The notes beneath the pieces were generated by a model. The model worked only from the letters and a program-made list of their open reading frames with translations, had not been told where the DNA came from and ran no database searches. The position numbers were made by a program, and so were the translations under genes. DNA of 64,000 nt from Solirubrobacterales bacterium (GTDB taxonomy: Bacteria > Actinomycetota > Thermoleophilia > Solirubrobacterales > JACPNS01), in contig JASGFX010000011.1 in the NCBI GenBank assembly GCA_047605325.1, positions 534 through 64,533 on the forward strand. Direction: 5' to 3'. Numbering within the stretch: the first letter of the stretch is position 1; the number at the start of each line of letters is the position of its first letter. This document shows positions 3,001-54,410 of the stretch, in pieces.

Positions 3001-6000
3001 GCTCGAGGTGCAGCCCGCGGTGTTGCTGAGGCTGTAGGTCGAGGTCGCCGTGGCCGCGGTGCCGCTCGGGTTGCCGGGGGTCAGCGACGAGCTCGGCGTG
3101 ATCGCCGAGGTGACGGTCTGCGTTCCGCAGCTGTCCGGGTTGGTCAGCAGAGCGCGCGGGCCGGTGTTGAAGTTCACCGTCATCTTGCTGAACGCGAGGT
3201 CCGGCACTGTGTCGAAGTCGGTCGTGATGCGGCCGGTGCCGGTGTCGGTGGCCCCGAGGCCGCCGGTCACGTTGCTCGAGCCGTCGACGTTGACCTTGCC
3301 GCGCAGCACCAGGTCGGTGCCCGGAAGGTGGACGACGATCGCCAGCTTGTAGCGGTTCGCGGCGCCGACGCCCGGGTCCTCGAGATACACGTTGCCGGTC
3401 TTCTGGCCGCTGAGCAGCGGCGTCTCGAGCGTGACCGTGCCTTGGTTGGAGCCGGCCGGGCAGGTGCTGCCGCCCGCGTTGATCGCCGCGGTGCTGCAGG
3501 TGGCCAGGCCGTTGCCGGCAGCCGCGTTGAGCGACATGCCGTCGGGCAGGGTCAGCAGGAAGCGGCTGATCGTCGAGTTGCGGCGGTTCGAGTTGATCGT
3601 CACACCGAGACCCGTCGGGACCGTGGTGTCGGCCGGTGTCGCGGTGACGTCGACCGTCGGAGTCGCGAAGAAGTTCTGCGGGCAGCCCGTCGTGGTGATG
3701 TCCGAAGAGACGTCGACCGGAGTCGAGCCGGTGTCGGAAGTCAGGTGGCCGGTCACCGTGTAGGTGCCGCACTTGCTCGGGACCGAGACGAAGGAGTTGC
3801 CACCGGCCTGGCCGTAGAGCGTGATGTCCATCTTGGACAGACGCACGGCGATGCCCTCGTAGCGCTTCGGAATCGTCGTCTTGGTGCTGACCGTCAGGTC
3901 GGAGTTGAGCTTCGTGCTGACCGGGATCACCAGCTTGCCGAGGTCGTATGGACCGACCAGGACGTTGGTGATCGCGGCGAGGCGCGCAGGCTCGTTGGCG
4001 TCGGGCTCGACGTTGTAGATGCCGCCCTGGATGTTCAGGTTGGCGGCGTCGCTCGTGCCGTTGCCGATGAAGCTGTCGAAGTCACCGACGATCTGCTCGG
4101 TGTCGCAGTTGCCGGCATTGGCGTCGGCCTGCGAGCAGTGTGAGGTCGCGGTCGTGGAGGCGACCAGGCCGAGCGGCAGGTCGAGGTCCAGCTGACGCAG
4201 GTAGCGCTGGTTGATACCGGTCGGGCGGTCGTAGTGGATCCCGAGGTTCGGGTGACTGCCGGCCGTGGCCGACGAGCCGCCACCGACGGTCACACTGAAG
4301 TTCGGCTGGAAGACATCGACTCCTGTGGTCGGTGTCGTCGTGATGTTCGACGTCGCGGTGCGGTCGTCGGAGACTTCATCGGCCGAGCTCGGCGTGAACG
4401 TCGCGCTGAAGGCTTGCGTGCCGCCCGGCTGCGGAGTGATCAGCATCGGGTTGGTCGAACTGAAGGCCATCGATAGCTCGGTGAAGCCGAGGTCCGGGAT
4501 CGAGTCGAAGTCGGCCGTGATCTGGCCGGTTCCGCTGTCGGTCGCCCCGGTTCCGCCGGTGATGTCAGAGGAGCCGTTGACCTTGACCTTGCCGTGGACG
4601 ACCAGCTTGGCGCCTGGCAGGCTGACCACCATCGCGACGCGGTAGCGCGTGTCGCCGGTCGCACCGCCCTGCTCGAGGTAGACGTTGCCGCTGTAGACCG
4701 TGTTCGGGTCGAGCAGCTGGGTCTTCAAGCTGACAGTGCCGATCCTCGACTCGTTCGGGCAGTTGGTCGCGTCGGAGTCGATCGTAGAGGTGCTGCAGAC
4801 CTGCAGGTTGTTGGCGAAGCCGGGGTTGATCTCGGTGCCGACCGGCATCGCGACCTGGACCCGGCCCATCGTCGGGTTGCTGAATGACGAGGTGACCTTG
4901 AACGTGAAGTTCGTCGGCGTCGTACGCGGCATGCTCGTCTGGCCGGCGCTGTTGGTTGCCTGGAAGGTCGGGCTCGCGGCGAACGAGTTGCCGCAGCCAT
5001 TGATCGTGATGCCCGAGTTGATCGTCGACGTGTCGGAGGCGTCGCTCGTCATCGTCGCGGCGATCGTCTTGGCGCCGCACTTGCTCGGGGCGACGATGAA
5101 CTTCGCGCCCGGCGTCGGCTCGCCCTTGATCACCATGTTCATCTGGCGCACACGCACCGCGATGCCCTCGTAGCGGCTCGGCAGCGTCGCCGAGGCCGTG
5201 ACCGAGAGGTCGGAGTTGAGCGTGGTCGGGACCGGAACAGTCAGCTTGCCGAAGTCGAACGGACCGACCTGGACCGGAACGACGGCCTGCAGGCGAGCCG
5301 GCGAGTCGGCGCCCGGGACGACGTTGTAGATGTCACCGAGGACCGTGTAGTCCTCGCCGACCGTGTCGCTGGAACCGAATGTCGTGGTGACGGTTCCGAC
5401 CCAGCTGGCCGCGGTGGTCGCAGCGCAGGTCGCGGCATTGGCATCGGCCTGCGGGCACTGGCTGACTCCGCCGGCCTTGGTGTAGGCGACGAGGCCGACC
5501 GGGAGTTTCACGTCGAACTTCTTCAGTTCCTTCATGCCCAGCGGGTTGCCGACGTTCAGCGAGAGGTCGGGGTTGCCCGCCGAGGTCGACGACGAGAGCG
5601 CCGCGCTGAAGGTCGGGTTGAAGGCCGTCACCGTGCTCGTTCCGCCGCTGACCGAGAAGCTGCCGTTGCGCGCCGTCGTCGTCGACGTCGAGTTCGGGGT
5701 CAGCGTGGTGGCGACGTTGTAGCTGCCGGCCGTCTTCGGGTTGACGAACAACTTGTTCGAGCTGCTGAAGGCGATCGACATGTTCGTGAAGCCGAGGTCC
5801 GGGATACCGGCGAAGTCGGCCGAAACCTGGCCGGTCGCGGTGCCCGCGGCGTCGGTCGAACCGAGGCCGCCGGTCACGTTCGAGGAACCATTGACCAGCG
5901 AACTGCCGTGGATCACCATGTCGCGGCCCGGCAGGTGCAGGACCAGCGCCATCTTGTAGCGCGTGGCTGCCGTGTTGCCCGGAGTCTCGAGGTAGACCTC

Positions 6001-9000
6001 ACCGGAGACGGGGTTCGGCAGCAGCGGTGTGTTCAGGGTGATCGACGCAAGGTTCGAAGTCGTGAGCTTGCAGGGGTTCGTCGATGACGCGTCGGAGTCG
6101 ATCGTCGAGCAGGCCACGAGCGTGTTGCCGACGCCCGGGTTGAGCTCCATGCCCTGCGGGAAGGCGAGCTGGACGCGGTTCGTCGTGGCGTTGTCGTCCG
6201 GCAGGGCGATACCCATCGTCAGGGCCGTCGGCGTTCCGGCGGTCGCCGGGCTCACCGCGGTGGTGACGGTCGGGTTGTACGGCGGCATCGTGGCGTTGCA
6301 GCCGGTGGTGGTGAACGTCGACGAGTTGTCGGCTCCGTTGCCGCCCGACGCGAGGTCGGTCGAGTTGTCACTGGCGGTGAAATCGGCGCTGATCGTGTGC
6401 GTGGCGCACTTGCTCGGGTTGGTCATGTAGCTCTTGCTGTTGACCGAGGAGGCGAGCTGCATGTCGAGCGAGCGGAGGCGCACCTTGATGCCCTCGTAGC
6501 GCTGCGGCAGCGTGGCGTTGATGTCGATTCCATAGTCGGCACGCAGAGTGGTGGCGACCGGGATCGTCATGTTGCCGAGGTTGTACGGACCGACGACGAC
6601 CGGGATGATCGCGGCGAAACGGGCCGGCTCGTTGGCGTTCGGCGTGACCTGGAAGATCTTGCCGCCGGTCAGGCTGAGCAGACTCGAGTCGGACTCGCCG
6701 ATCGCTGTGGTGAAGGTTCCGACCTGCGAGCTGGCTGCGGTCGTCGCGCAGGATGCGGCGGCGGCGCTGGCCTGGGAGCACGGCGTGGTCACCGCGCTGG
6801 TGTTGGCGACCATGCCGGTCGGCAGGTGGATCGTCATCGCCTTGAGCAGCTTGTTGCCGTTCGGGCGCTCGACCTTGAGGCCGAGGTTGCCGTGACCGGC
6901 CGGCGCGGTGCTCGCGTTGGTCGCGGTCAGCTTGACGTTGAACGGCGAGGTGCCGCAGCCGGTCAGCGGGTACGACGGGTTCGTCGTGCGCGTCGCACCG
7001 GTGTTCGAGTTCGGCGTGAAGATCGCGTTGAATGAGTTAGTGCAGGTCTCGGGGTTGACGACCATGGCGTTCGAGCCGCCGTTGAAGGTCATCGTCAGGT
7101 TCGTGAAGCCGAGGTCCGGGATGTTGTCGAAGTCGGCGCTGATCACACCCGAGCCGGTGTCGACGGTGCCGGTGGCGCCGGTCGAGGCCGTCGGGATGTC
7201 GCTGCTTCCGTCGATCCGGACCTGACCGCGGACGGTCAGCTTCTGGCCGGGCAGGTCGATGATCATCGCCAGCTTGTAACGGTCATCCTTCGTGTTGCCC
7301 GGGTTCTCGAGGTAGACCTTGCCGGTCTGAGTCGCCGCGAGCAGCGGAGTCGTCAGGCTGACGGTCGCGATCTGCGAGCCGCTCGGGCAGCCGGATCCAC
7401 CGGCATTGATCACTGCCGTCGAGCAGGTGGCCAAGCCGTTGGCGAAGGACGGGTTGATGTCCATGCCGTCGGGGAAGGTCAGCTGGATCCGTTTGAACGT
7501 CGGGTTGCCCTGGTCGGAGTTGATGTTGAAGATCAGTCCCGCGGGCGCGGCCGGCGTGCTGTTGTCGCTGGTGACCGCGATCGACGTGTTGCCGGTGAAA
7601 CCGGCGCAGCTGGTCGGGGTGAAACCGAACGAGCCGGTGGCCGTCTGCGGCGAACCGCCTTCGGACGTCATCGTCGTGCTGATCGTGTGCAGCGAGCAGA
7701 TGCTCGGGTTGACCATGAAGGCGTTGCCGGTGGCGGCCGTCTTGGCCAGGCCCATCTGCAGCGAACGCACGCGCACGGCGATGCCCTCGTAGCGCAGCGG
7801 CAACTGGGCCGTCGCGGTGATCGAGTAGTCGGCGTTGAGTGCGGTCGTGACCGGAATACTCAGCTTGCCGAGATCGAACGGTCCGACGACGACCGGCATG
7901 ATCGCGGCGAAACGTGCGGGCTCGTCGGCGTTGGCGGCGACGTTGTAGAGCGAACCGCTCAGCGGGTAGGTCGCCGAGCCGGAGCCGATCGTCGCCCCGA
8001 CGGATCCGACGACCTGGTTGGCGGCGCATCCACCTGCTGCGGCGGTGGCCTGCGAGCAGCGCGTGGTGGCCGTCGTGTTGGCGACCAGACCGGTCGGCAG
8101 GTTGACGACGATCTTGCGCAGGTTCAGGTTGTTGTCGGGACGGTTGAAGGTCAGCGTGACGTCGGGGTTGCCGGCCGAGGTCAACGGCGTGACGCCGCCG
8201 GCGAAGGTCGGGGCGAAGCCCTGCGAGCAGTTCGTGTCCGGCGTGTATCCGTCGGTCACCGTCTTCGTGGCGCCGGTTCCGTTCGGCGTCCAGATCGCGC
8301 TGAACTGCGAAGCGGTGCAGGCCGTCGGATTGACGAACAGCGCGTTGCTGCCGCTGTTGAAGGCAACCTTCATCGTCGAGAAACCGAGGTCCGGAATGCC
8401 GCTGAACTCAGCGCTGATCTGTCCGGTTCCGCTGTCGACCGCGCCGGTTCCACCGGTCGGGATCGTCGAGGAGCCGTCGACCAGAACCTGGCCGTGGAGG
8501 ATCAGGTCCTTGCCCGGCAGGTGCACGACGATCGCGGTCTTGTAGCGCGTCGAGGCGGTGTTGCCCGGCTGCTCGAGGTAAACGGCGCCGGTCTGCGGGT
8601 TCGAGAGCAGCGGCGTCGTCAGCGTGACGGTTCCGAGCTTGGAGCCGTTGCTGTCGCAGGCGGCCTGGTTGCTTGCGAGGTTGCTGTCGCTGCAGTAGGC
8701 GAGACCCGTGCCGGCGGCGGGGTTGAGTTCGAAGCCGGCCGGGAAGGTCAGCTTGACGCCCTTGGTCGTCGGGTTGTTCAGCGTCGTGCCGAGGTCGAAG
8801 GTCAGACCGACCGGCTGGCCGGCAGCCTTCGTCGACGGCGTGACGGTGAGCGTCGGCGTGTCGGTGTAGGGGCGGTTGCAGCCGGTGAAGTTCGCGGCGC
8901 TGGTGCGCGAGACCGTCGTGCCGTCGCCGGCCTTCAGGTCGGCGCCGATCGTGCCGGAGAGACAGGCGCTCGGGTTGATCATGAACGGCTGACCGCCGAC

Positions 9001-9675
9001 CATGCCGTTGATCGTCAGGTTGACTGCGCGGACGCGGACGTCGATGCCCTCGTAGCGCTCTGGCAAGGTCGAGAAGGTGTCGACACCGTAGGTGCGCGTG
9101 CCGGAGTCGGTCGTTCCGTCGTTGAGCGCGGTCGAGATGTCGACCGGCATGTTGCCGAGATTGAACGGTCCGACCTGGACCGGGATCAGAGCGGCGAGGT
9201 GCGCCGGCTCATTGCTGCCCGGGACGACGTTGTAGACCGTGCCGCTGAGCGAAAGACGCTCGGCCGCGGCGCCGATCTCGGTCGAGATCGTTCCGACCGC
9301 GCTGCTCGGCGTGCTGCTGACGCAGGTGCCAGCGGTCGCGTCTGCCTGCGGGCAGCGGGCGACGTTGGTCGTGTTGGCCACCAGGCCGACGGGCAACTTC
9401 ACATTGAAGTTCTTGATCGTCCTGACGTTCGTGTCGGTGCCGTTGTTGGTGCCGACGGCGATGTTCAGGTTCGGGTGCGCTCCGGCCGTGTAGTCGGAGA
9501 GCGTCGCGCTGAACGTCGGGTTGAAGGCCTGGGTGCAGTTGGCCGTCGTGTCGAACGTCTTGGTTCCGGTGGAGGCAGTCGCGCCGGTGCCGTTGGCGGT
9601 CACGCTGGTGCCGATCTGCCAACCGGTCTGGCAGGACGACGGCGTGATCAGCATCGCGCGGTTGCCGCCGTTGAG
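1..9675 (-). CDS. Giant tandem-module secreted protein, distal segment (3' end lies beyond window start)
   Basis: Minus frame whose codons end on coordinates divisible by 3. My spot translations are open and have almost all G/C at third positions: 9601-9675 (LNGGNRAMLITPSSCQTGWQIGTSVTANG), 4981-5040 (ASDTSTINSGITINGCGNSF) and 1-60 (CADADSAAGNCGTTEPNSKV). The ORF track lists no minus ORF in this frame between 1 and 9675. That fits one ORF with no in-window stop; the track also omits the open-ended ORF at 63024->64000. Seven copies of the module motif RYEG(I/M) occur (antisense GATGCCCTCGTAGCG-like) at 1174, 2551, 3850, 5161, 6487, 7780 and 9043. A gene caller would probably start it at ATG 9654. 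Confidence 0.8.
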
Positions 9676-9677
9676 GG

Positions 9678-12068
9678 TCAGGTCAGGGTGCCGAACGCGA
9701 GGTCCGGAATCGCCGGGAAGTCGGTGACGATCTGACCGGTTCCGGAGTCCTTGGCGCCGGTTCCACCCGACGGGATCGTCGACGAGCCGTCGACCGTGGC
9801 GCCGCCGTGGACGATCAGCATGCGGCCCGGAAGCTTGACCACGAGCGCCAGCTTGTAGCGGGTGCTGGCGAGCGAGCCCGGCGTCTCGAGGTAGAGCTTG
9901 CCGGTGTAGGTGCCGGAGATCAATGGCGTGGTCAGCGAGACCGTTCCCTGCTGCGCCGCGGCCGGGCAGTTGTCGGTCGTCGTCGTGATCGCGTCGATCA
10001 CGGCCGTGTCGCAGGTCATGTTCGAGCCGGCGTTTCCGACGGCCGGGTTGATCGACATGCCGACCGGGAAGGTCAGCTTGACGTCGCCGATCGACGGGTT
10101 GCCGTCAGGCGAGGTGACGCCGACGGTCATGCCGGTCGGGGTCTGGGCCGAAGTGCTGATACCACTGATCGCGAAGGTCGGGGTACCGGCGCTGAATGCG
10201 GTCGGGCAACCGGTGGCGACGTAAGCGGAGGAGTTGTTCGCGGCGCTGGTGTCGTTGGTCGAATCAGCGGACGTGAAGTCTGCGCTGATCGTCGCACCGG
10301 CGTTGCACTTGCTCGGGTTGTTCAGGTAGTTCTTCGAGTTGACGGTGCCGTTGATCACCATCTGCATCGTGCGGATGTAGACAGCGATGCCCTCATAACG
10401 CGTCGGCAGCGTTGCCGCGAGGTCGATGCCGTAGTCGCTGCGCAGTGACGCCGAGATCGGAAGCGTCAGGTTTCCGAGGTTGAACGGACCTACCTGGACC
10501 GGGATGACAGCCTGGAAACGAGCTGGCTCCTCGGCGTTCGGCACGACGGCGAAGATCTTCCCGCCGGCGAGCGACACGTTCTCGTTGCCCGAGCCGATCG
10601 CCGTGGTGAAGGTTCCGACCTGCGAAGTCGGCTGAGTGGTCGCGCAGCTCGCCGCAGCGGCCGACGCCTGGGTGCACTGGGGTACGTAGCCGGTGCTGGT
10701 GTTGGCGGTGAGGCCGGTCGGGAAGTGGATCGCGAGGTTCTTGAGCTGACGCTCCTTGTCGTTGCGCGCGATGTTCATCGTCAGCGTCGGGTGGGCGCCC
10801 GCCACGTAGGTGCTGGCGGTCGCCGTGAACGACGGGTCGAAGGCGTTGGTCGAGCCGGTCGGCGTGTAAGTCGCCGAAGCGGTCGTGTCCGTCCCCGGGT
10901 TGCTGTCGGAGTTCGGCGTGAAGATCGCGTCGAAGGTCGCGGCGTCGTTGGTGCGCGGGTTCACGACCATTGCGCGGTCACCGCTGTTGAAGGCCATCGT
11001 CAGACCGGTGAAACCGAGGTCCGGGATGTTGTTGAAGTCAGCGACCATGCGGTGCGAGTCGAGCGTGTGCGCGCTGTCGATCGTTCCGGTCGCGCCAGTT
11101 GAGGCAGTCGGGATGTCACTCGAACCCGGGATCGTCAGCGAGCCGGCGACGACCAGCGGCTGGCTCGGGACGTTGACGATCATCACGACCTTGTAACGCG
11201 TGGCCGCGGTGTTGCCCGGCGCGACCACGTAGACGTTGCCGGCGATCGGGCTGGTCGAGAGCAGCGGGGTCGTCAGCGAGACGGTCGCGATCGAGGTCGC
11301 ACCCGAGCAGCCCGCGACGGTGGCGGCGCTGCAGGTGGCGCCGGCGGAGCTCAGCAGGTTGCCGAAGGCCGGGTTGATGTCCATGTTCAGCGGGAACTTC
11401 AGCTGGACGCGCTTGATCGTCGGGTTCGACTGGGTCGCGGCGTCGGAGCCGATCGCGAAGGTCAGTCCGACCGGCGCGGCGGCCTGCAGCGTGCTCGGAG
11501 TCACCGACATCGTCGGCTCCTTGCCCGAGGTGAAGTTCTTCGGGCAGCTGCTGATCGCGAAGGACGGCGAGGTGGCCGTGGTGAAGCTTGCGCTGTCGTC
11601 CTTGTAGACATCGGCGCTGAAGTCGCTGACGGTGCGGCAGATCGACGGGTTCTCGAAGAACTGGCTTCCGCTCACCGTGCCGTTCAGCGTGACGCTGAGG
11701 CTGCGGGTGCGGATGTCGATGCCCTCGTAGACCTTCGGCAGCGTCGCAGTCGCGTCGATGCCGTAGTTGCTGCGCAGCGAGGTCGTGACCGGGACCGACA
11801 GCTTTCCGAGGTTGTACGGACCGACGGTGACCGGTATCACGGCCTGCAGGCGTGCGGGCTCGGTGCTGTTCGGGACGACGTTGTAGACCGAACCGGCCGG
11901 GAGCGTAAGCGTCTCGGCGTCGGATCCGACTGTGGCCGTCGCAGTTCCGACGACCGGCGTGGCGCAGTTGCCGGCGGCAGCGACGGCCTGCGTGCACGTC
12001 GCGACGTTGCCGGTGTTGGCGACGAAGCCGACCGGCAGGTGGTAGACGACCTTGCGCAGGTAGTCGAC
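9678..12068 (-). CDS. Giant tandem-module secreted protein, middle segment (read in a different frame from its neighbours)
   Basis: ORF track 9678..11840 (720 aa) shows the same module architecture, e.g. LPTRYEGIAVYIRTMQMVINGTVNSKNYLNNPSKC and TPLISGTYTGKLYLETPGSLASTRYK. I extended the frame upstream to 12068, where it reads DYLRKVVYHLPVGFVANTGNVA. It ends at a TGA created by the 5-bp duplication at 9676-9685. Confidence 0.75.
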   Translation of the reverse strand, partial: VDYLRKVVYHLPVGFVANTGNVATCTQAVAAAGNCATPVVGTATATVGSDAETLTLPAGSVYNVVPNSTEPARLQAVIPVTVGPYNLGKLSVPVTTSLRSNYGIDATATLPKVYEGIDIRTRSLSVTLNGTVSGSQFFENPSICRTVSDFSADVYKDDSASFTTATSPSFAISSCPKNFTSGKEPTMSVTPSTLQAAAPVGLTFAIGSDAATQSNPTIKRVQLKFPLNMDINPAFGNLLSSAGATCSAATVAGCSGATSIATVSLTTPLLSTSPIAGNVYVVAPGNTAATRYKVVMIVNVPSQPLVVAGSLTIPGSSDIPTASTGATGTIDSAHTLDSHRMVADFNNIPDLGFTGLTMAFNSGDRAMVVNPRTNDAATFDAIFTPNSDSNPGTDTTASATYTPTGSTNAFDPSFTATASTYVAGAHPTLTMNIARNDKERQLKNLAIHFPTGLTANTSTGYVPQCTQASAAAASCATTQPTSQVGTFTTAIGSGNENVSLAGGKIFAVVPNAEEPARFQAVIPVQVGPFNLGNLTLPISASLRSDYGIDLAATLPTRYEGIAVYIRTMQMVINGTVNSKNYLNNPSKCNAGATISADFTSADSTNDTSAANNSSAYVATGCPTAFSAGTPTFAISGISTSAQTPTGMTVGVTSPDGNPSIGDVKLTFPVGMSINPAVGNAGSNMTCDTAVIDAITTTTDNCPAAAQQGTVSLTTPLISGTYTGKLYLETPGSLASTRYKLALVVKLPGRMLIVHGGATVDGSSTIPSGGTGAKDSGTGQIVTDFPAIPDLAFGTLT

Positions 12069-12069
12069 G

Positions 12070-15000
12070 GCGCCCGTTCGTGACGGTCATCGTCAGGTTC
12101 GGGTTGGCCGCCGGGGCGCCGCTGGTCACGCTGGCGCTGAAGCTCGGGGCGAAGCTGACCGTGCGGCAGTTCGTGTTCGTGTTGAACGAACTCGAGCTGG
12201 TCGCGGTGGTCGTCGGGTTCGTGTACGCGTACATCGTCGCCGTGATCGTGTTCGTCGCCGCGCAGGTCGTCGGCGTGATCAGCAGCGCCTTGCTGCCGGA
12301 GTTGAGCACGACGCTCAGCGCCGTCCAGGCGATGTCGGGCATGTTGTCGAAGTCGACCGTCAGCGCACCGGTGCCGCCGTCGACCTTGCCGGTTGCGCCG
12401 GAGGGCACGTTGCTGTCACCGTCGAGGCGCACGACACCGCGGGCCACAACGGTCTGACCCGGGATGTTGATCAGCACCGCGACACGGAAGCGCGTGGCCG
12501 CGTTGCCCGAGGGGTCCGGAGTCTCGAGGTAGACCTTGCCGGTGAACGGTCCGCCGGAGATCAGCGGAGTGGTCAGCGAGACGGTGCCGAACTGCGTGGC
12601 GCCGGCAGTGGAGCAGAGATCGCTGCTCGGGGTGGAGTTGTTGATGTTCGCCGTCGAGCAGGTGGCGGCGCTGCCGAGGTTGCCGACCGCCGGGTTGACT
12701 GTGGTGCCCGCCGGGAAGGTGAGCTTGAGCTCCTTCATCGTCGAGTTGCCGGCCGCGTTGGTCACCGCCGTGGTCAGGCCGATCGGAGCCTGGTTCTGCG
12801 GCGCTGCCGGGCTCGTCGTCATCGTGGCCGTCGGCGCGGTGGCTCCGAAGGTCGTACCGGTGCATGTGCCGGTCGTGAAGCTGGCGCTGCCGTTCGCGGT
12901 GGTGCCGAGCGCCGACGTCATCGTGACGTTGGTCGTCTTGGCCGTGTTGCACTGACTCGGGTTGGTCAGGAAGTTCGCGCTGTTGCCGGGGGCGACTCCG
13001 TTGATCGTCACCTTGAGCTGGCGGTACCGGACCTTGACACCCTCGTAACGACCCGGCAGCGTGACCGAGGCGTTGAGGCCGTACGGGTCAGCATCAGAGG
13101 CGCCGCGCATCGAGACGTCGACCGGGAGGGTCATCGAACCGAGGTTGTACGGGCCGAGCACGACCGGGACGATCGCGGTCAGCTTGGCCGGGGCGGTCGC
13201 CGGGGCGACGGTGTTGTAGAGCTTGCCGGTGAGAGTCGCGAGACCGACCGTCGGGGTCGCGATCAGCGCTGAGCCGACCGATGCGGTGACGGTTCCGACC
13301 TGGGTGTTGGCCGGGCAGTTGGCCGCGTCAGCCAACGCCTGCGTGCAGGTCGGGACGTTTGCGGGAGCGCCGGTCAGGCCGGATGGCAGCTTGAAGGTCG
13401 CGCCGGCGAGCTGCTGGTTGACCTCCGGACGGTCGACCTGGAGCGTGAGATCGGGGTGCGCGTTCGGGGTCGTGGTCGAGACGGTCTGGCTGAACGTCGG
13501 CGCCCAAGCGCCGCCGCCGTTGGCGGTGGTCGTGTAGCTGGAGGTGGCCGACGCCGTGTTCGGCGTCGCGGAGGTGTTCGTCGCGGTGAACGCCGCGTTG
13601 AACTGCTGCGAGGCGCCAGAGATCTCGGAGTTCACGAACATGCGCGGACTCTGGTTGAAGTTGAGCGACATCGACGAGTAGGCGACGTCGGGCAGTCCGG
13701 TGAAGGTCGCGACGATCTGGCCGGTCGAGACCTCAGAAGTCGAGCCGAGTCCGCCAGTCACGCCGCCTGCGGTCGAACCGGAGACGGTCGCTCCGCCGCG
13801 CACGATCACGAGACCGCCCGGCATGTTCAGGTACATCACGAACTTGTAGCGATCGGCCGTGCCCGAGCCGGGCTGCTCGAGATAGACCGAGCCCGTGACC
13901 GCGGTCGGCAGCAGCGGTGTGTTCACGGTCACATCGGCAACCTTCGAAGCGACCGCCGCACATGTGTTGGTCGTGTTGTTGAGGTCGTTGGTGACGTTGG
14001 CCGTCGGGCAGGCGGTGGCGCCGTTGGCGAAGCCGGGGTTGATCTCGAGACCGGCTGGCATCGTCACGGTGACGGCGTTGATCGTCGACTGTTGGACCGT
14101 CGTGCCGGTGACACCCGACTCGGTCTGAGCCTGGTTGACCGTCACGTTCAGCCCGGTCGGCTGGGCGGCCACCGTGGTTTCCGGAGTGACCGTCACGGTC
14201 GGCGAGAAGCCCTGGGCAGCGCATCCGCTCGTCGTCTGGTCAGTGTCGGACGGCGTCATCGTCGAAACGGTGCCGCTGCCGGGCGTGTTGCCCGAGAGAT
14301 CACCGTTCGAGGTGATCGAACTGTTGAAGTTGAGGACCTGATTGCACTTGGACGGGTTGATCAGGAAGGGCTTGCCGTTGACGTAACCGTTGAGTCGCAG
14401 GTTGATCGACTTGTAGGCGATCGGCACGCCGAGAATCGACTGCTGGAGTCCCAGTGTCGAAGCGCGCAGGCGGAAGGTCGACGCCGAAGGAAGCGTCATG
14501 TGCGTGATGTTCACGACGTTGCCGAGGTTGAACGGACCGACCACGGCCGGCGTGATGATCGCCAAGCGCGCAGTGTCGCCGGAATCTGGCTCGGCCATGT
14601 AGACCGTTCCGCCCAGCGTCGCGGGGCTCGAACCGGTCCCGGCCACGACCGTGACCGTTCCGACCGCGGCGGCGGCCGGGCAGCCGTTGGCCTGAATCGT
14701 CGCGAGGTTGCCGGTACAGCGATTTGCCGCGTCGATCACCTTGACGGAGCCGGCCATGCCGGTCGGAAGGTCGACCACGAAGTCGCGGATGTTGTCCTGG
14801 CGGTCGCCACGGGTGACCGTGAGGTCGAGTCGCGGGGACTTGCCGACGCCGGTCTCCGGCGTCGTGGCGGTCGCGTCGGACATGCTCGTGAGATTCGCGG
14901 AGAAACCAGGGTTGAAAGCGCTGAACGCGCAGGTCGCGTCGCCGGATTCGCTGATGGTGCGGCGCTGGCCGTTGGCGACAGACGCCGTCGGGCTGAGCGC

Positions 15001-16581
15001 ACCCTGTCCGGTCGTGGTCCACGGAGTCAGCGTGATGCCGAAGTCCGCGGTCGTGGTGCAGACGTTCGGGTTGAGCAGCAGCTGCTGCGCGGCGTTCGGA
15101 CTCGATACCGGGCCCGATGAAGGCGTGCCGACACCGGTCGATGCGGAGTTGAAGTCGAGGATGAACGATCGATAGTTGAACTGCGGCAGGCCGGCGCCGG
15201 CGTTGTCGAAGCTCACGACGACATTTCCGGTCGTCGAGTTGACGGTCGCGGTTCCCTGGAACTTCGTCGCAGTCGCGCCACGCGCGGCATAAACGTAGAG
15301 GCGGTACTTGCCGGCCGCTTCGTCACCAGTCTGAGGCTGCCCGAGATAGAGCTTTCCGACAAGGTTGTCGGTGAACTCAGGTGCATCGACCGCGACCGTT
15401 CCGATCTCGCTACTGCTCGGACAAGTCGGCGCGTTGCCGCTCGTTGTCATACCGGCCACCGGCATCAAGAACTGAGCCTCGGTGCAGCCGGTTGAGCCGA
15501 GGCGCGTCGCCACGCCCGGGTTGATCTTGTAGCCCGACGGCAGAGTCATCGCGAAGACCTTCGCGTAAGCGCCCTGCGCGACGTTGGTTGTCGGGACGGT
15601 GTTCGTCAGCGTTGCACGGATTCCGACCGGGGCTCCGGCCTCGTCGGTCGTCGTCGACATCGAGAACCCGAGGTTCAGCGCGGGGTAGCTCGCGCAGTTG
15701 GGTGTGCTGGTACCAGTCCCCGCACGCGAATCCAGCGTGCCGTCAACCGGGTGGACGTCGGCGGTCGGGCTGGCGTTGGAGTCGTAGCCCATCGTGTACG
15801 CCGTCGTGTTCCAAGCATCACAGCGCGTCGGGTTGGTCAGGAACGGCTTGCCGCTGGGCGCGATGCCGTTGATCGTCTGGCTGATCGTCTTGACACGGAT
15901 GCTCGCGGTGCCGCCCAGCGCACCGGTGTACTGGGTGCGCGGAAGCGTGTCCAGAATCTCGAGGCGCAGACCGTTGTCCCAAGGTCGCAGCGTGATCTTC
16001 GCCGTCATGTCCATCGACTGCGTACCGGCCAGTGAACATGCGCCGAGGGCGCCTCCGCTCGGCGTACCGCTGACGTGGACGCCGACGTAGGTCGGCACTT
16101 CAGGCGTTGCGGTCGGCCGGTTCTTCAGCAGATAGAGGTTTCCGGTCAGGGTCAGGCCGCACTCGCCGACCCACGCCGATGCGGTCACGCCGACAGAAAT
16201 CGTTCCGATCACACTGCTGGCCGGGCAGGTGCTGTAGCCGTCGGTGTTCGATGCCGGCGAGCCCGCGGTGTAGTCGACGGTGTTGCAGCGGTTGGCCTCG
16301 GTGATCGCGTTCGGATCACCGATCAGTCCGGCAGGCCAGTCGAATGAGAGGCGCTGGATGTCGTCGCCGCTGTCTCCGTTGCCGTTTCCGTCGGCGTAGT
16401 TGAGCGACAGCGATTGCGTGACGTTGCCGTGGGCGCCGGGAGTGTTGGTCGAGTAGGTGGTCGACGTGGTCGGCCAGACGGTCGCGCCTGCGTTCTGCGT
16501 GAAGGCGACCGTAAAAAGGCATGCAGCGGCCAGGGCACTCAGCCAGAGAAGAGCAATTCGCGACGTCCGTGTCACGTTCAT
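12070..16581 (-). CDS. Giant tandem-module secreted protein, N-terminal segment with signal peptide
   Basis: ORF track 11116..16821. The plausible start is ATG 16581 (MNVTRTSRIALLWLSALAAACLFTVAFTQNAGA-TVW), with GGGGG 5 nt upstream. The sequence is protein-like down to ...NPNLTMTVTNGR at about 12070. Beyond that the same frame becomes Arg/Pro/Gln-rich nonsense (RRRLPAQGRLPPAGRLRRQHRQ) until its nominal stop at 11116. Confidence 0.85.
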
Positions 16582-16946
16582 ACGAACCCCCGCGCTTGCG
16601 GAAAGATTCGGTGCTCCTTCAATACAGCTGGCAGCCGGGCCGTCGTGACCCTTGGCACTTGCGTGCATTCTCTGCATCCCCTTGATTTGATTCATGTCCC
16701 CGGTTTCGAAAGCGAATCCGTTCGTCCGAAAATCTGCACCGGACGGTGAAGTACTTGTTTGTGTCGGCGCGAGGCCTCTAACCCTTGAGTAACAACAGGT
16801 TCTTGTCAGCGCGCGGACCACGCACCCTTGCGTCGTCCGGGCAGCTCAGGCGACCCCCCTCCCTGGTGGCCGTATGGTTGAGCCGCGCGATCAGCGCGAA
16901 TCAAGAGTAGCCGTGAGCAGGTCAGCCCACAATGCTGATTTTTCAG

Positions 16947-18023
16947 CTAATTGAAAAGTCCTTCAATCACGCTGGTGAGCGCGGAAACCGAGGGTCTTCC
17001 CTCATCCAGGACGGTGCGCCGGCCGGGCCGCGTGGCCGGTGACCAGGCCACGATTTCGGCCAAACGGGCCGGAGCGATGCCAAATCCGCCCAATGCGGAC
17101 TTCATCCCGACTTCATCCAGGATGGTCTTGACGGCATCGATGTCGCCGCCCTGGAGGGCGGTTGCGACAAGCGTTCCGAAGGCGACCTGCTCGCCATGGG
17201 GGGCCGTTCCAGGCTCCAGCGCGTCCAGCGCGTGGCTGATCAGGTGCTCCGACCCCGAGCAGGGCCGTGACGATCCGGCGATCTCCATCGCGAGGCCGCT
17301 GAGCACGAGTCCGTCGAGCAGTCTTTGCGCCAGATCGAGCGGCAGCTCGCCTGAGCCGAGCGGCGTGAGATCGAGCCCTTCGATCAACAGATGCGCGCAG
17401 GAGCTGAGCAGCGCCGCGAAGTCGTCGACCTGCTCTTCGCCCGATTGCGCGGCGATCCGCCAGTCGATCAGCGCCGTGCGGTTTCCCAACAGGTCGCCGA
17501 CTCCGGCGCGCGCGAAGGCGATCGGCGCAGCCGCGATCGTCGTGAGGTCGGCGAGCACCGCGACGGGCAGCGCCGAGCGTTCGCTCACGACCTCGCCGGT
17601 GGTTTCGCGGATCACGGAGATCGGCGAGGCGATGCCGTCGGCCGAGAGCTGCGTCGGGATCACGATCACCGGTAGCTCGGAGGCAAGCGCCGCGGACTTG
17701 GCGACGTCGATCGGGCGACCGCCGCCGATCGCGATCAATACGTCACGGGCCCGGGCGATCTCGGCGATGCGCGCGACTTCGGCGCGCGAGTTGTCGGTCA
17801 CGACCTCACGCGACGCCGATTCGACCTTCAGGTCGCTGCAGACTGCGGCAGATTGCGAACTGCCCGAGACCAGCAGCGGCGCCGTGGCGCCGAGCGCTTC
17901 GAGCACGCCTGCGAGCTCGGCGGAGAGCTCATCGACGCCCTGCGTCGCGCGCAGGAACTGAGGTAGCTCGATCTGACGCTTCGCGGCGATCGCCCCGATC
18001 AGCTGATCGAAGCCGTCAGACAC
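16947..18023 (-). CDS. sn-glycerol-1-phosphate dehydrogenase family protein (AraM/EgsA-like, iron-ADH/DHQS-like fold)
   Basis: In-frame part of ORF 16947..18269. Motifs: IAIGGGRPIDVAK, IVIPTQLSADGIASP, RAGVGDLLGNRTALIDW, GSSRPCSGSEHLISHALD, PHGEQVAFG. The GTG start at 18023 overlaps the upstream stop by 8 nt (GTGTCTGA). The upstream part of the ORF is Ser/Arg/Thr-rich and looks non-coding. Confidence 0.75.
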   Translation of the reverse strand: MSDGFDQLIGAIAAKRQIELPQFLRATQGVDELSAELAGVLEALGATAPLLVSGSSQSAAVCSDLKVESASREVVTDNSRAEVARIAEIARARDVLIAIGGGRPIDVAKSAALASELPVIVIPTQLSADGIASPISVIRETTGEVVSERSALPVAVLADLTTIAAAPIAFARAGVGDLLGNRTALIDWRIAAQSGEEQVDDFAALLSSCAHLLIEGLDLTPLGSGELPLDLAQRLLDGLVLSGLAMEIAGSSRPCSGSEHLISHALDALEPGTAPHGEQVAFGTLVATALQGGDIDAVKTILDEVGMKSALGGFGIAPARLAEIVAWSPATRPGRRTVLDEGRPSVSALTSVIEGLFN

Positions 18024-18741
18024 GACTCTCGCGCTCCGCGATCGCGGGAGCGATCGTGTTGTCGGCGCGGTCGAGATCGTCGTGATCGTCGATCTCAACC
18101 CACTTCGTGCCGCCGACGCGTTCGATTCGCACGCGGCGCTCTTTCGCGAGTGCTTCGATCGCGTCTTCGTAGTAGACCTGCGTGTTGCCGCCGGAGACGA
18201 ATTCCTCGAGGATCTCGGCAAGGCGCGGGCCGTCAGCCGGATCGATACGGGTGAGGCCGATGTACTCACCGACGGCCCGGTCGAGCGCTATCGACTTGTG
18301 CAGACGGTCGAGGCCGTCGCCGGCCTCGGTCGCCTTCATCGACTCCTCGTCGACTGCGAGCTCGTCGTCGACGAGGATCGCGGTGCCTTCGGTTTGCGCG
18401 AGGCGGCGCGCCAGTTCCGGCTCGAACAGCAGGTCGCAATTGACGATCGTGCAACCCCGTGCGACGACCTCGCGCGCCTGCCACAGCGAGGTGATGTTGT
18501 TCTCGGTGTCCCAGCGCTCGTTGAAGATCGTTTCGACGTCGTAGCCATCAAACGCGTCGGCGGCGTGGCCCGTGATCGCGATGATCCGCTCGAACCCGGC
18601 GGCGCGCAGGTACTCGAGACTGCGATCGACCAGCGGACGTCCACCGGCCTCGACCATCGCCTTGGGTCTGTCGCCGGTCAAATCGCCCAGCCGAGAACCG
18701 CGGCCGGCGGCGAGGTAGATGACAGGAAGCTGATCGCTCAC
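18016..18741 (-). CDS. Nucleotidyltransferase (GxGxRL-type sugar-/alcohol-phosphate nucleotidylyltransferase, LicC/RmlA-like)
   Basis: In-frame part of ORF 18016..18921. Begins VSDQLPVIYLAAGRGSRLGDLTGDRPKAMVEAGGRPL from GTG 18741. The upstream portion of the ORF lies over the palindrome region and looks non-coding. Confidence 0.8.
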   Translation of the reverse strand: MSDQLPVIYLAAGRGSRLGDLTGDRPKAMVEAGGRPLVDRSLEYLRAAGFERIIAITGHAADAFDGYDVETIFNERWDTENNITSLWQAREVVARGCTIVNCDLLFEPELARRLAQTEGTAILVDDELAVDEESMKATEAGDGLDRLHKSIALDRAVGEYIGLTRIDPADGPRLAEILEEFVSGGNTQVYYEDAIEALAKERRVRIERVGGTKWVEIDDHDDLDRADNTIAPAIAERESRV

Positions 18742-18774
18742 GCAACAACCGTACCCGCCACCCCTCCACAGGCT

Positions 18775-18795
18775 TTGCAAGCTTCGAGCTTGCAG
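18775..18795. promoter_or_regulatory. Palindrome copy 1: TTGCAAGC-TTCGA-GCTTGCAG
   Basis: Read directly. It has 8-5-8 inverted-repeat geometry with a 7/8 arm match and lies 34 bp upstream of the nucleotidyltransferase GTG. Confidence 0.5.
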
Positions 18796-18837
18796 GCCGA
18801 AGTTGGCGAGATTTGGCCCTTGTCCATGGGGTTTTCT

Positions 18838-18858
18838 TTGCAAGCCCGAAGCTTGCAA
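18838..18858. promoter_or_regulatory. Palindrome copy 2: TTGCAAGC-CCGAA-GCTTGCAA
   Basis: Perfect 8-bp arms, exactly 63 bp from copy 1. Confidence 0.5.
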
Positions 18859-18900
18859 GAAATTCCCGTTGTTCAAGGGGTTTCTCGCGGCGGGATTCCG

Positions 18901-18921
18901 TTGCAAGCTCGAAGCTTGCAA
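18901..18921. promoter_or_regulatory. Palindrome copy 3: TTGCAAGC-TCGAA-GCTTGCAA
   Basis: Perfect 8-bp arms, exactly 63 bp from copy 2. Its last base is the A of the candidate ATG 18921. Confidence 0.5.
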
Positions 18922-19865
18922 TGAAGGACGTGTTGGTTAGGGTGCGCGGGATGGAGAATGCGGTTACGCGTAAGAACCTTCCAGCGCTTCCCGAACTGAT
19001 CGCTATCTGCGGCGGTGAGGGGACGGCCGGTCGCGACGAGCCACGCGACTTTCGGAGGATCTACGCCCGCGGCGTGCGCAAGCTCTCGATCCGCATCACG
19101 CGCGTGCTGCTCCCGACCGGCATCAGCGCCAACCAGACCACCGTGTTCGGGATCCTCGTCGGCATCGCCGGTGGCCTGCTGCTCGCGATCAACAGCTATT
19201 GGGCGCAGATCCTCGCGATCATCCTGATGCAGCTGGCCTTCGTGCTTGATTTCTGCGACGGCGAGATCGCGCGCTTCGAGCGGCAGATCGAGGGCAAGAG
19301 TTCCGGCGCCGGCGGCGCCTACCTCGACTGGGTCGGGCACTACTACATGCCCGCCGCGATCACGGCGGGCCTCACCTGGGGCGTATTCCGCGAAAACGGC
19401 GACTGGTGGTGGCCGGCACTGGGCCTGATCGTGATCCTTTCACTGGTGCGCGTGCCCTACAGCGCGCGCGACCACATCATGTGGGGCGTCTACCGCGACA
19501 AGCCCGAGCTACGCGGGTCCGACACCATGGTGCGCGCAGCGCTTGCGCGGATGGGCGGCGACCCCGACGCGCTGAACCTGGAAGCCCAGGGCGCCGAGGC
19601 GATGGCCGGCTCCGAGGGCCGCGGATTGCTCTGGAGCCGGTACACCAACTTCGGCCAGTTGATCGTCTTCCCAGGCTTCATCAACCTAGTCGCGGCGGCG
19701 AGCATCATCGACATGCTGATCAGCGCGTTCTCCGCACCGAGCTACTTCGAGGTATCGAGCGTCTGGGCGCGCGGCGCGGTGCTGGCCCTACTCGGGGCCG
19801 TGCACTTCCTGCACCAGATCCGGGCGATCGCCCAGGGATTTCGAATCACGCGCGCGCTGCAATAG
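18921..19865 (+). CDS. CDP-alcohol phosphatidyltransferase family membrane protein (atypical motif)
   Basis: In-frame part of ORF 18813..19865. Motif LDFCDGEIARF (D-x2-DG-x2-AR) is followed by ...GAYLDWVGH, where the terminal Asp position is His. Several hydrophobic segments are present. The start could be ATG 18921 or ATG 18951 (MENAV). Confidence 0.75.
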   Translation: MKDVLVRVRGMENAVTRKNLPALPELIAICGGEGTAGRDEPRDFRRIYARGVRKLSIRITRVLLPTGISANQTTVFGILVGIAGGLLLAINSYWAQILAIILMQLAFVLDFCDGEIARFERQIEGKSSGAGGAYLDWVGHYYMPAAITAGLTWGVFRENGDWWWPALGLIVILSLVRVPYSARDHIMWGVYRDKPELRGSDTMVRAALARMGGDPDALNLEAQGAEAMAGSEGRGLLWSRYTNFGQLIVFPGFINLVAAASIIDMLISAFSAPSYFEVSSVWARGAVLALLGAVHFLHQIRAIAQGFRITRALQ

Positions 19866-30843: not shown

Positions 30844-31660
30844 ATGAGCGACGAAGACGTCAAGCTCGGCCTGATCGAGGCTCTGGGCTACGGCGTGCTC
30901 CAGGGTCCGACCGAACTTCTGCCGATCTCCAGCTCGGGGCATCTGGTGCTCGCGCCGCACCTGCTCGGCAGCGACTACGTGAAGCTCGACCCGGAGCTGC
31001 GCAAGACCTTCGAGGTCGCCCTGCACGCCGGCACCGCGGCGGCGCTCGTGATCGTTCTGCGCGAAGAGGTCTTCGAGGCGGTACGCGATCTCGACGGGCG
31101 CCGCCTCGGGATGATCGTCAGCTCGATCGCCCCGGCCGCGGCGCCGCCCTCGGACTCGGGAAGGTGATCGAAGGCAAGCTGAGTCGCCGGAGATCGTGGT
31201 CGTCGGCCTCGTGGCGGGCTCCGCCGCGATGGCGTGGGCCGACGGTTTGAAGGGCGATCGTGCTCGTTCGGCGGCCGATTGGCGCGATGGGCTCGCGCTC
31301 GGACTCGCCCAGGCGGTCGCGCTGATCCCGGGCGTCTCGCGCAGCGGGTCGACGATCGCCTGCGCCCGCGCGCGCGGCTTTGACCCGCTCAGCGCAACCG
31401 AGCTCTCGATGCACGTCGCGTTGCCAGTGATCGCGGGAGCGACGCTGCTCAAGGGCGTGCGCGCGAAGCAGAACGGTCTGCCGGCCGGCATGCGCGCGCC
31501 GATCGCCGTCGGCACGCTCGGCGCCTTCGCGAGTTCGTTCGCGAGCGCCCGCCTGCTGGCCTCGAAGAACCGCGGCCGCGGACTGATGAAGTACGTGATC
31601 TACCGCCTGCTGCTGGCGGCGGGCGTGACGTGGTTTCTCTCCAAGGACCGCAGCGGCTAG
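30844..31660 (+). pseudogene. uppP: Undecaprenyl-diphosphate phosphatase (UppP/BacA) with the reading frame broken twice
   Basis: The N-terminal part (ORF 30844..31167) has LQGPTELLPISSSGHL. The C-terminal part (ORF 31196..31660) has PGVSRSGSTI. My three-frame reading gives ...IVSSIAPAA (frame 1), then AALGLGKVIEGKLSR (frame 0), then PEIVVVGLVAGSAAM (frame 2). That implies two 1-nt deletions, near 31129-31146 and 31185-31187. Confidence 0.8.
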
Positions 31661-36917: not shown

Positions 36918-37634
36918 TCAGCGCCTGATCCGTACCGGCGTTCCGGCAGCGATCCGCGAGGACATGTAGCGCACGAACGCATTGGGTACACGCACGCAGC
37001 CGTGCGAGCGCGCGCTGCCGAGCGGGTCGCCCATCGCCGCGGCGCCGCGACCGTGAATGCCGATCGTGCCGTCACCGCCATCGAAGCTCTTCAGCTTTTG
37101 CGAGTTGGCGTTTAGGTGGAATATCCAGGGACCGGAGAATCCGCTCGCGTCGGGCTGGCGCACGACTTCACGGATCGCAAACTCGCCGGTCGGGGTGGGC
37201 GTGCCCTTCGCGCCGACGACCGCGCGGGTGCTGCGCACGGGCCTGCCGTCCCGGAAGATCGTCGTGCGCCGCTCGGAGAGATCGACGACGACGCGCCAAC
37301 GGTTCTCATGCAACTGTGCGTAGTCGGCCGGGATCCAGCCATAGCTGCCGTTGGGCTTCTTCGCCAGCAGCAGTTTGATCCACAGGTGGCCGTCGGCGTC
37401 GGTCGCCACGTCGGCCACGAGCAGTTGCATCGGCCCCTCATTCCAGGGTGCACGGGTGCGCACCTTGCCGACGACTCGAGCACCGTCCCGCGGCTCGGCC
37501 CGCGCGCTCGTGGCCATCACGATCCGCGCCGACCAAGAGACCGAATCCGTCGGCGCGGCGACCGCCCCGGCCGAGGCCGGGAGCGCCGCGGCCGCCACGC
37601 AGGCGACCGCGAGCCATCCGAGCCTTCGAATCAT
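36918..37634 (-). CDS. L,D-transpeptidase (YkuD domain) with signal peptide and SH3-like N-domain
   Basis: Begins MIRRLGWLAVACVAAAALPASAGA. Catalytic motif IGIHGRGAAAMGDPLGSARSHGCVRV. Its ATG overlaps the stop of the upstream DUF11 reading frame (ATGA at 37631-37634). Confidence 0.9.
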   Translation of the reverse strand: MIRRLGWLAVACVAAAALPASAGAVAAPTDSVSWSARIVMATSARAEPRDGARVVGKVRTRAPWNEGPMQLLVADVATDADGHLWIKLLLAKKPNGSYGWIPADYAQLHENRWRVVVDLSERRTTIFRDGRPVRSTRAVVGAKGTPTPTGEFAIREVVRQPDASGFSGPWIFHLNANSQKLKSFDGGDGTIGIHGRGAAAMGDPLGSARSHGCVRVPNAFVRYMSSRIAAGTPVRIRR

Positions 37635-38161
37635 CCGGTCGTGCCGCCGCCGTGCGAACGTCTCGCCGGAACGCGGATGCGGCCGTAGGCGCGCACAGTC
37701 CTGGCGTTGTAGGCGCCGGCCCGAGCCGGATTGGTGACGATCGACCCGCGACCATTGCTCACGCGGAACTGCGGCTTGTAGGTGCGCGTCGCGCCCGGGG
37801 CCAGCGAGCTGATCTGCCAGCAGAGGTTTCCGCTCTTGAGCTTGCCGTGATCCTTGTAGACCACACTCAGACGATCGGGGATAAGGTCGCAGACCTCGAC
37901 ATTCACGGCCCGCGTCTTCGAGACGTTCTTGACCTTGATCGTGAACGTGACCTTCCCTCCGACCTTGACCGACTTCTTGTTCGGGACCTTCGTGATGCGC
38001 AGCACGGCGGTGCTCTTCTTCGCTTCAACTGGCGAGGTCGCGGTGTTGTCGTTCGGATTGCGGTCGTTCTCTGCCGTCACCACCGCCACGTTGACCGTGC
38101 TGCCGGTACGGGCGATGATCGTCTTCAACTCGATCGTGCGCGACTCGCCGTTGGGGATGTC
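37631..38161 (-). CDS. C-terminal continuation of the DUF11 surface protein, downstream of an in-frame TGA
   Basis: Same frame as 38162..45520 (38164-38128 = 36 nt). It reads DIPNGESRTIELKTIIARTGSTVNVAVVTAENDRNPNDNTATSPVEAKKSTAVLRITKVPNKKSVKVGGKVTFTIKVKNVSKTRAVNVEVCDLIPDRL, i.e. further DUF11 repeat sequence. Confidence 0.7.
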   Translation of the reverse strand, partial: DIPNGESRTIELKTIIARTGSTVNVAVVTAENDRNPNDNTATSPVEAKKSTAVLRITKVPNKKSVKVGGKVTFTIKVKNVSKTRAVNVEVCDLIPDRLSVVYKDHGKLKSGNLCWQISSLAPGATRTYKPQFRVSNGRGSIVTNPARAGAYNARTVRAYGRIRVPARRSHGGGTTG

Positions 38162-45520: not shown

Positions 45521-45742
45521 TGAGTTGTGGCCGGAATCTCCGTCCGGCGCGGTTCTGGAATACCGAAACGCTTTTGGGGAAGGCGTGTCCTTACAAGTCG
45601 AGCTGCCTGACGATATTCCCCCCACTACTTGTAGGTAAACCCGATTGAGATCGTGACCCGGCCACAAAAGCATTGGACATTCAATTGCCGCGCGGATGGA
45701 TTGACGGCGATCCGCATCGATTCGGCGTAACTTCTCACTCTG

Positions 45743-51583: not shown

Positions 51584-51585
51584 GT

Positions 51586-53076: not shown

Positions 53077-53077
53077 G

Positions 53078-54391: not shown

Positions 54392-54410
54392 CTCTCGCCC
54401 CCCGGCGCGG

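Follow-up and report, generated by a model that had tools for sequence, protein, structure and literature searches.

Why should the gap between two divergently transcribed gene units carry the same 21-bp palindrome three times? The question is raised by a 64-kb stretch of DNA from a Solirubrobacterales bacterium (contig JASGFX010000011.1), which as a whole is called the window below and to which all unprefixed coordinates refer. A first-pass annotation had described three palindromes of the form TTGCAAGC-N5-GCTTGCAA, at an exact 63-bp spacing and with an imperfect first copy, between a minus-strand operon (a nucleotidyltransferase and a protein resembling glycerol-1-phosphate dehydrogenase, G1PDH) and a plus-strand gene of the CDP-alcohol phosphatidyltransferase family. 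The answer that we favour, and to which we would give an even chance, is that a dimeric helix-turn-helix regulator uses the palindromes as its operators, and that this lineage acquired them within a 184-bp palindromic insertion.

A search with TTGCAAGCNNNNNGCTTGCAA matched the window at the same three places, once with one mismatch (the last base, G) and twice exactly, with start-to-start distances of 63 and 63 bp. A decayed fourth copy was read from the sequence itself, in a region that matches 18843-18883 at 73% over 41 nt.

18775 to 18795, no strand: palindrome copy 1, TTGCAAGCTTCGAGCTTGCAG, that is TTGCAAGC-TTCGA-GCTTGCAG; 15 of 16 arm bases; centre 44 bp upstream of GTG 18741.
About 18790 to 18810, no strand: decayed fourth copy, TTGCAGGCCGAAGTTGGCGAG; partly covers the right arm of copy 1; 48 bp ahead of copy 2.
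18838 to 18858, no strand: palindrome copy 2, TTGCAAGCCCGAAGCTTGCAA, that is TTGCAAGC-CCGAA-GCTTGCAA; dyad symmetry centre of the whole insert.
18901 to 18921, no strand: palindrome copy 3, TTGCAAGCTCGAAGCTTGCAA, that is TTGCAAGC-TCGAA-GCTTGCAA; centre 40 bp upstream of ATG 18951.

The annotation had not noticed the motif elsewhere in the window, and the 64 kb hold no further match at up to three mismatches. Looser forms of the motif gave chance-level matches only, and none of about 50 other intergenic regions of the window contains a palindrome cluster. The 8-mer TTGCAAGC occurs six times against 0.9 expected, five of the six inside the palindrome region. Shuffled sequence gave a mean of 0.12 matches and never reached the three observed, which rules out a chance origin. 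The cluster is real, non-random and unique within the window.

Scattering of the motif, as in a repetitive extragenic palindromic (REP) element, had been named beforehand as an outcome that would sink the proposal, and it was not seen within the 64 kb. A high-copy REP family is unsupported there, the cluster being single and lying between divergent starts. Short palindromic units in both orientations, conserved linker motifs between them and a mosaic build do recall REPs and bacterial interspersed mosaic elements, but REPs are found throughout a genome in large numbers, for the most part in transcribed 3′ regions, whereas the window has a single cluster in a divergent promoter region.

The array is more structured than the annotation saw. 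Reverse-complemented, copy 1 is identical to copy 3 at 20 of 20 nt, the asymmetric centre included (TTCGA against TCGAA), and the whole 209-nt intergenic region folds as one nested hairpin centred on copy 2 (-109 kcal/mol, z -6.9; z -8.0 for the other strand). The two spacings are equal because of this mirror symmetry about copy 2, which largely explains the geometry to which the annotation had appealed. The outer flanks (18742-18774 against 18922-18954) resemble each other as mirror images not significantly more than shuffled sequences do (p 0.44), and no use was made of this. A further module, motif B, of about 28 nt, adjoins copy 2 on both sides.

18808 to 18837, plus strand: motif B copy 1, GAGATTTGGCCCTTGTCCATGGGGTTTTCT; abuts the left side of palindrome copy 2; weak hairpin followed by a T-run.
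18859 to 18885, plus strand: motif B copy 2, GAAATTCCCGTTGTTCAAGGGGTTTCT; abuts the right side of palindrome copy 2.

Both spacers contain motif B in the same direction, and its position with respect to the palindromes differs by 12-13 nt between them (p<0.0005, shuffles); similarity of the spacers in inverted orientation is weaker (p 0.009). Two longer direct repeats are likewise shifted, one of 30 nt at 87% identity (18829-18858 and 18892-18921) and one of 41 nt at 73%, with a shift of 49 bp.

Repeats of this sort could mean that a promoter unit of palindrome, spacer and -10 was duplicated locally, either in tandem or in inverted form at a hairpin, and left the array behind as a side effect. 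Copy 3 alone would then function, as a -35 with or without an operator role, while copies 1 and 2 decay. The shifted repeat families, the doubled motif B and the decayed copy at about 18790 would fit such an origin, as would two degenerate -10-like hexamers read from the sequence, CATGGG after the decayed copy and CAAGGG after copy 2. Against it, 15-16 of the 16 arm bases survive in copies 1 and 2 amid decayed surroundings, which is not what neutral duplicates would lead one to expect; the spacers are 31% identical in register; and spacer 2 shows no significant similarity to the sequence after copy 3 (p 0.12). Tandem Repeats Finder returned 0 rows for the region, and 63-bp units align only in the palindromes, so that a simple 63-bp tandem repeat is ruled out. 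We regard local duplication as quite improbable. The insert is a mosaic: outside the palindromes its parts have drifted to 30-73% identity, yet the arms of the three copies agree at 47 of 48 positions. The contrast between kept arms and decayed surroundings indicates that the palindromes themselves are preserved, and is the main internal argument for selection on them.

How the palindromes came to lie here can be read from syntenic Thermoleophilia loci of seven lineages (L001/L002, L123/L124, L125/L126, L003, L004, L162 and L163), in all of which gene order is unchanged and the transferase is 79-87% identical. In four of them the divergent start codons are 16-25 bp apart, at a junction CAACAGTAATGTGCGCGAC-ATG (L001:9985-10010, L123, L125, L163:6002-6028). 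There TAATGT stands 7 nt before the plus start and TACTGT 8 nt before the minus start, one TA being common to both hexamers, with no Shine-Dalgarno sequence on either side. From this we would read two leaderless promoters that stand back to back and have 10 bp in common, a type of arrangement frequent in Actinomycetota. At this junction the window has an additional segment.

18754 to 18937, no strand: lineage-specific insertion of 184 bp, in no relative; folds as one long imperfect hairpin.
18752 to 18753, no strand: left TA flanking the insert, possibly a target-site duplication; part of the minus-strand -10; the relatives have a single TA, in ACAGTAATGT.
18938 to 18939, no strand: right TA flanking the insert, from alignment with the relatives; part of the plus-strand -10.

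TA on both sides of the insert, against one in the relatives, is a 2-bp repeat and as such weak evidence for a target-site duplication. Two relatives carry other insertions at the same junction, a 1.4-kb segment with three genes in L003:8566-10000 (263 amino acids (aa), an 85-aa ribbon-helix-helix-like protein, and 96 aa) and one 86-aa open reading frame (ORF) in L162:5716-6033, so the junction is a hot spot for insertion. Downstream of its transferase, L003 also has an HTH_31 gene and a 162-aa gene; the HTH_31 gene was considered as a member of the XRE family discussed below and is unrelated to it.

An insertion at such a site need not bring a regulator with it. The segment could be a small, non-autonomous element, mobile or palindromic, present as a remnant or in one copy (a miniature inverted-repeat transposable element (MITE), or one like Correia or ERIC), inserted at TA with duplication and affecting the promoters incidentally, with no dedicated regulator. 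Its absence from every relative, the paired TA, the perfect 20-bp inverted repeat formed by copies 1 and 3, the region-wide hairpin, the mosaic of repeated modules and the other insertions at the junction all speak for this origin. Correia elements of Neisseria, enterobacterial ERIC sequences and IS630/Tc1-type MITEs are likewise about 150-200 bp long, intergenic, folded as long imperfect hairpins with inverted repeats, inserted at an apparently duplicated TA and able to give a neighbouring gene a -35-like hexamer. They occur in tens to hundreds of copies, however, whereas the collections searched hold no second copy of the window insert and no related element: no other copy or fragment was found in the window or in about 170 kb of the relatives' loci, and nothing related turned up in all fetched loci, plasmids and phages (blastn) or in viral contigs (pattern scan). 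A two-site scan of 241 million metagenome records gave one match, an unrelated tandem repeat low in guanine plus cytosine (GC). That metagenome contig (L127:180-310) has a 53-bp unit, each with TGCAAGC-N5-GCTTGCA.

The inverted repeats of the insert, moreover, are not at its very ends, being separated from its boundaries by 21 and 16 non-complementary bases. Transposition leaves unexplained why copy 2, inside the insert, should match the ends in sequence, and why the arms are perfect while the remainder has decayed. We hold a mobile element without a dedicated regulator to be less likely than operators, but a serious rival. The operator and mobile-element readings are compatible and not mutually exclusive, the most interesting possibility being a palindromic cassette that brought operators with it.

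The flanking genes and the putative promoter elements that face the insert are as follows.

18016 to 18741, minus strand: MobA-like nucleotidyltransferase (NTP_transf_3, Pfam scan), start GTG 18741.
16947 to 18023, minus strand: Fe-ADH_2 dehydrogenase (G1PDH-like), 358 aa as in the relatives; overlaps the nucleotidyltransferase gene by 8 nt.
18951 to 19865, plus strand: CDP-alcohol phosphatidyltransferase-family membrane protein, with corrected start.
18748 to 18753, minus strand: putative -10 hexamer TACGGT (ACCGTA on the plus strand) of the nucleotidyltransferase operon, 6 nt before GTG 18741.
18916 to 18921, plus strand: putative -35 hexamer TTGCAA, read from the sequence; formed by the right arm of copy 3, with 16 nt between it and the -10.
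18938 to 18943, plus strand: putative -10 hexamer TAGGGT, 7 nt before ATG 18951, a leaderless layout.

The transferase start needed correction. All eight homologues examined begin at the residue that matches ATG 18951, which is M11 of the ORF from ATG 18921, and ATG 18921 is probably not the start codon. Because the homologues start at ATG 18951, the divergent gap is 209 bp (18742-18950) and not 179 bp as first given; copy 3 does touch ATG 18921, as the annotation had said, but the codon loses its standing as the true start.

Both -10 hexamers are kept in the window, now 184 bp apart. At the plus-strand position the relatives have TAATGT, TAGGGT or TAGAGT, and at the minus-strand position TACTGT or TACCGT. 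With TTGCAA in the right arm of copy 3, the transferase promoter would read TTGCAA, 16 nt, TAGGGT, 7 nt, ATG 18951. Judged from these hexamers and their conservation in the relatives, both genes are apparently leaderless, without a Shine-Dalgarno sequence.

This layout bears on a role in RNA, which the annotation had offered as its alternative: that the palindromes act as 5′ leader hairpins, terminators or attenuators. A stem of 8-9 bp is open to each copy, the fold of the region is very stable, and motif B contains one weak terminator-like site (18815-18842). With a -10 conserved 6-7 nt before both starts and no Shine-Dalgarno sequence, however, the palindromes would lie upstream of the predicted transcription starts; no T-run follows them, Rfam gave no match near significance, and the region is not conserved in the relatives. 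A known RNA family or an intrinsic terminator was ruled out, Rfam being empty and the sole terminator-like site falling in motif B and not in a palindrome. Both genes looking leaderless, a function in the transcript is very improbable.

Which regulator might read such sites? The exact pattern was searched in one genome per species (185,579 species genomes), with at least 118 matching stretches. Most of these are single scattered chance matches in unrelated phyla. Among the matches listed, 54 come from Streptomyces, Kitasatospora, Streptacidiphilus, Amycolatopsis, Prauserella, Pseudonocardia, Actinoplanes and relatives, and at every one of these 54 loci (within L005-L122) TTGCAAGC-N5-GCTTGCAA lies directly upstream of the same small XRE-family gene, over its -35; L157:2920-2940 belongs with them. 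The encoded protein has a conserved GVSNPYLSQIERGLRKPSAE helix and the XRE core …LRQLA..AGVSNPYLSQIERGLRKPSAE…. In its promoter the right arm TTGCAA forms the -35, after which come 17-18 nt of spacer and a -10 that fits (C/T)ANNNT (CATGGT, CAAGGT, TAACGT or TAGCGT). The XRE ATG comes 6-7 nt after the -10 in Streptomycetaceae and Micromonosporales (leaderless), while Pseudonocardiales have a short leader with GAGGAGG. Copy 3 shares the layout of these 54 loci, with the same arms, spacing and promoter position. A metagenomic lineage of 72% GC has TTGCTAGC-N5-GCTTGCAA at the same place upstream of its XRE gene.

Several observations stand beside this result. The actinomycete sites have a third, half-site-like element, GYTAGC(ACTC), 0-2 nt after the right arm; no description of the palindrome together with GYTAGC was found in the literature searched. 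A gut metagenome-assembled genome (MAG), Eubacterium sp. RGIG4416, has the palindrome on three contigs (L028:4235, L074:4725, L079:541) inside aaaggccTTGCAAGC..GCTTGCAAggcctttt, which looks like a repeated terminator-like hairpin, unrelated to the window. In an uncultured 65%-GC lineage without the palindrome, a run of CGGTTG hexamers lies just upstream of the XRE gene (L161:9840-9895); the SodA of that contig is 42% identical to that of the window, so it is not from a close relative.

The XRE protein family has 179 representatives at E<=1e-30 and includes mycobacterial members in the gene order XRE, HbhA-like, DUF2516, DUF2599. On the Mycobacterium tuberculosis map Rv0475 is hbhA, and from this gene order we take the family to be that of Rv0474/MSMEG_0918. 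No binding motif of Rv0474 was found in the searchable papers that mention it, and a literature search for TTGCAAGC returned primers only. Rv0474 is mentioned as a repressor of its own gene in two papers (PMC10884836, PMC10961391), both citing Raghunandanan 2018.

The regulator of the window sites would most likely be an orthologue, or a relative sharing the specificity, of the Rv0474/MSMEG_0918-type XRE protein; the promoter of that protein's own gene carries the identical palindrome over its -35. Although both are built on the self-complementary, -35-like TTGCAA, coincidence in the 8-bp arm as well as in the 5-bp spacing is unlikely. The likeness extends to the right arm serving as a -35 TTGCAA, a spacer of 16-18 nt, a -10 of (T/C)ANNNT and a start codon often 6-7 nt after it. 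The two differ in that the XRE promoters have one site per locus, the window three; in that the sites there are always beside an XRE gene, while those of the window face envelope-biosynthesis genes; and in the central bases, (A/G)NNN(T/C) there and TCGAA-type here.

On the operator reading, a palindromic insertion would have entered the TA common to two back-to-back leaderless divergent promoters, one driving the nucleotidyltransferase and G1PDH-like operon and the other the CDP-alcohol transferase gene of an envelope glycopolymer cluster. The transferase promoter would owe its -35 (TTGCAA) to copy 3, which overlaps it; copy 1 would closely precede the opposite operon's core promoter, and copy 2 would stand midway. 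A regulator on copy 3 might block RNA polymerase or touch it in the manner of a class II activator. If all three sites were occupied on one face of the DNA (63 bp, about six turns), cooperativity would be possible and could couple both units. The full scenario, in which a cassette with three XRE operators hit the shared TA, kept both -10s, added a -35 and put a glycerol-phosphate-type envelope locus under that regulator, seems to us unlikely as a whole.

Part of what is expected of operators is found here: dyad sites of dimer size, more alike to one another than their surroundings are (47 of 48 arm positions against 31%), which overlap or adjoin putative core promoter elements (the layout of copy 3; the centre of copy 1 at -44 from GTG 18741). 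Several results weigh against operators and against this regulator. None of the seven syntenic lineages has the palindrome (eight loci scanned at up to four mismatches, the L162 and L163 junctions read), so the sites are not conserved upstream of the orthologues. Non-conservation in syntenic relatives had been set in advance as a ground for rejection, and it applies in part, the whole segment being inserted; by comparison with the relatives the 184 bp appear to be a recent acquisition, and the absence of palindromes there is then not due to drift of the sites. The argument that 63 bp is six helical turns, placing all sites on one DNA face, is weakened: with equal spacing automatic from the dyad symmetry, only one free value is left near a multiple of 10.5, and about three in ten random values fall within 1 bp of such a multiple. 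Copy 1 is 21 nt from the opposite, minus-strand -10, too far for a -35 role.

As regards the Rv0474-type protein, the arms and the right arm as -35 are present in the window, but the sites lie at no XRE gene's own promoter and the adjacent GYTAGC is absent, the copies being followed by GCCGAA, GAAATT and TGAAGG. No XRE homologue was found in the window by tblastn with the XRE protein. Nor was a Thermoleophilia orthologue found among the matches listed in word-index searches, which were dominated by Pseudonocardiales and an environmental clade; cluster look-ups gave Janibacter, Acidimicrobiaceae, Nanopelagicales, Kineosporia, Mycolicibacterium and one Myxococcota-labelled MAG, with no Thermoleophilia, and the absence of Thermoleophilia among the at least 118 listed stretches is not evidence of absence. 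In marine Acidimicrobiaceae and in one uncultured clade the XRE genes also lack the palindrome, and the Mycolicibacterium XRE gene has a variant only, CTGCTAGC-N4-GCTTGCAA. The link between XRE protein and palindrome is thus not universal, and binding of the one to the other is what we infer. Of the original proposal, a dimeric regulator acting on both units, there remain dimer-type palindromes in a divergent promoter region, with copy 3 over a putative -35 and a match in 54 genomes; conservation was not seen, and the helical-phase argument is weakened.

In outline the arrangement resembles Cro/CI-type arrays such as lambda OR1-OR3 between PR and PRM, with three dimer-type palindromes between divergent promoters, one of them over a -35, and a potential for cooperative occupancy and coupled control in both directions. 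The lambda operators, however, are 17 bp long and about 24 bp apart, so that dimers are adjacent, whereas centres 63 bp apart would need looping or higher-order oligomers, and no repressor gene flanks the window array.

The wider neighbourhood is that of a cell-envelope locus. GC content in the window is 65-70%, and for its genes the best homologues carry the names Thermoleophilaceae or Solirubrobacterales. After the transferase come genes for a Wzx-type flippase, Wzy_C, LytR_C, Polysacc_synt_2, DUF354 and a DegT aminotransferase; these genes, with the dehydrogenase, nucleotidyltransferase and transferase, make up a cell-envelope glycopolymer cluster. The annotation had seen no transcription-factor gene adjacent to the palindromes, and no transcription-factor domain was found in about 35 window ORFs scanned against Pfam.

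Other features of the window were recorded in passing. The BacA/UppP (undecaprenyl-diphosphatase) gene is in two ORFs (30844-31167 and 31196-31660; profile positions 3-67 and 118-256), by either a frameshift (a pseudogene) or an assembly indel. On the minus strand, 1-16845 holds a giant surface-protein gene that is open in three frame segments (16845-11119, 12086-9681, 10104-1); in the relatives it is a single ORF of 6400-6700 aa, and the window version implies two frame changes. The split BacA and the broken giant gene together hint at assembly indel errors. A second very large ORF (2763 aa, 38162-46453, minus strand) lies next to a DUF11 protein and a YkuD L,D-transpeptidase (37631-38128 region). 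A conserved actinobacterial cell-division and wall cluster at 49790-59167 comprises a PASTA kinase (PknB-like), a PbpA-type transpeptidase, FtsW/RodA, a PP2C phosphatase, two FHA proteins (FhaB- and FhaA-like) and a further kinase. An HNH endonuclease ORF (61585-62322) overlaps, just upstream, a long ORF (62025-63002) with the domains of Fe/Mn superoxide dismutase; Sod itself probably starts near 62400.

Promoter-embedded palindromic operators, possibly insertion-borne, are a known kind of element; what is added here is a concrete candidate regulator family. If the segment is a stray palindromic element and nothing else, the finding is an ordinary one. If the sites are bound, it would be a clean natural example of one-step gain of promoter regulation, in which an insertion splits two overlapping leaderless promoters, destroys neither, and brings its own operators and a -35; a regulon would then have grown through a ready-made, possibly mobile operator module and not through point mutations. 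The palindrome, conserved in promoters from Streptomyces to Amycolatopsis and Actinoplanes, may also give a handle on the DNA target of Rv0474-type XRE regulators, and the window locus one on how transcription is controlled in Thermoleophilia, a class that is abundant in soil yet has hardly been studied.

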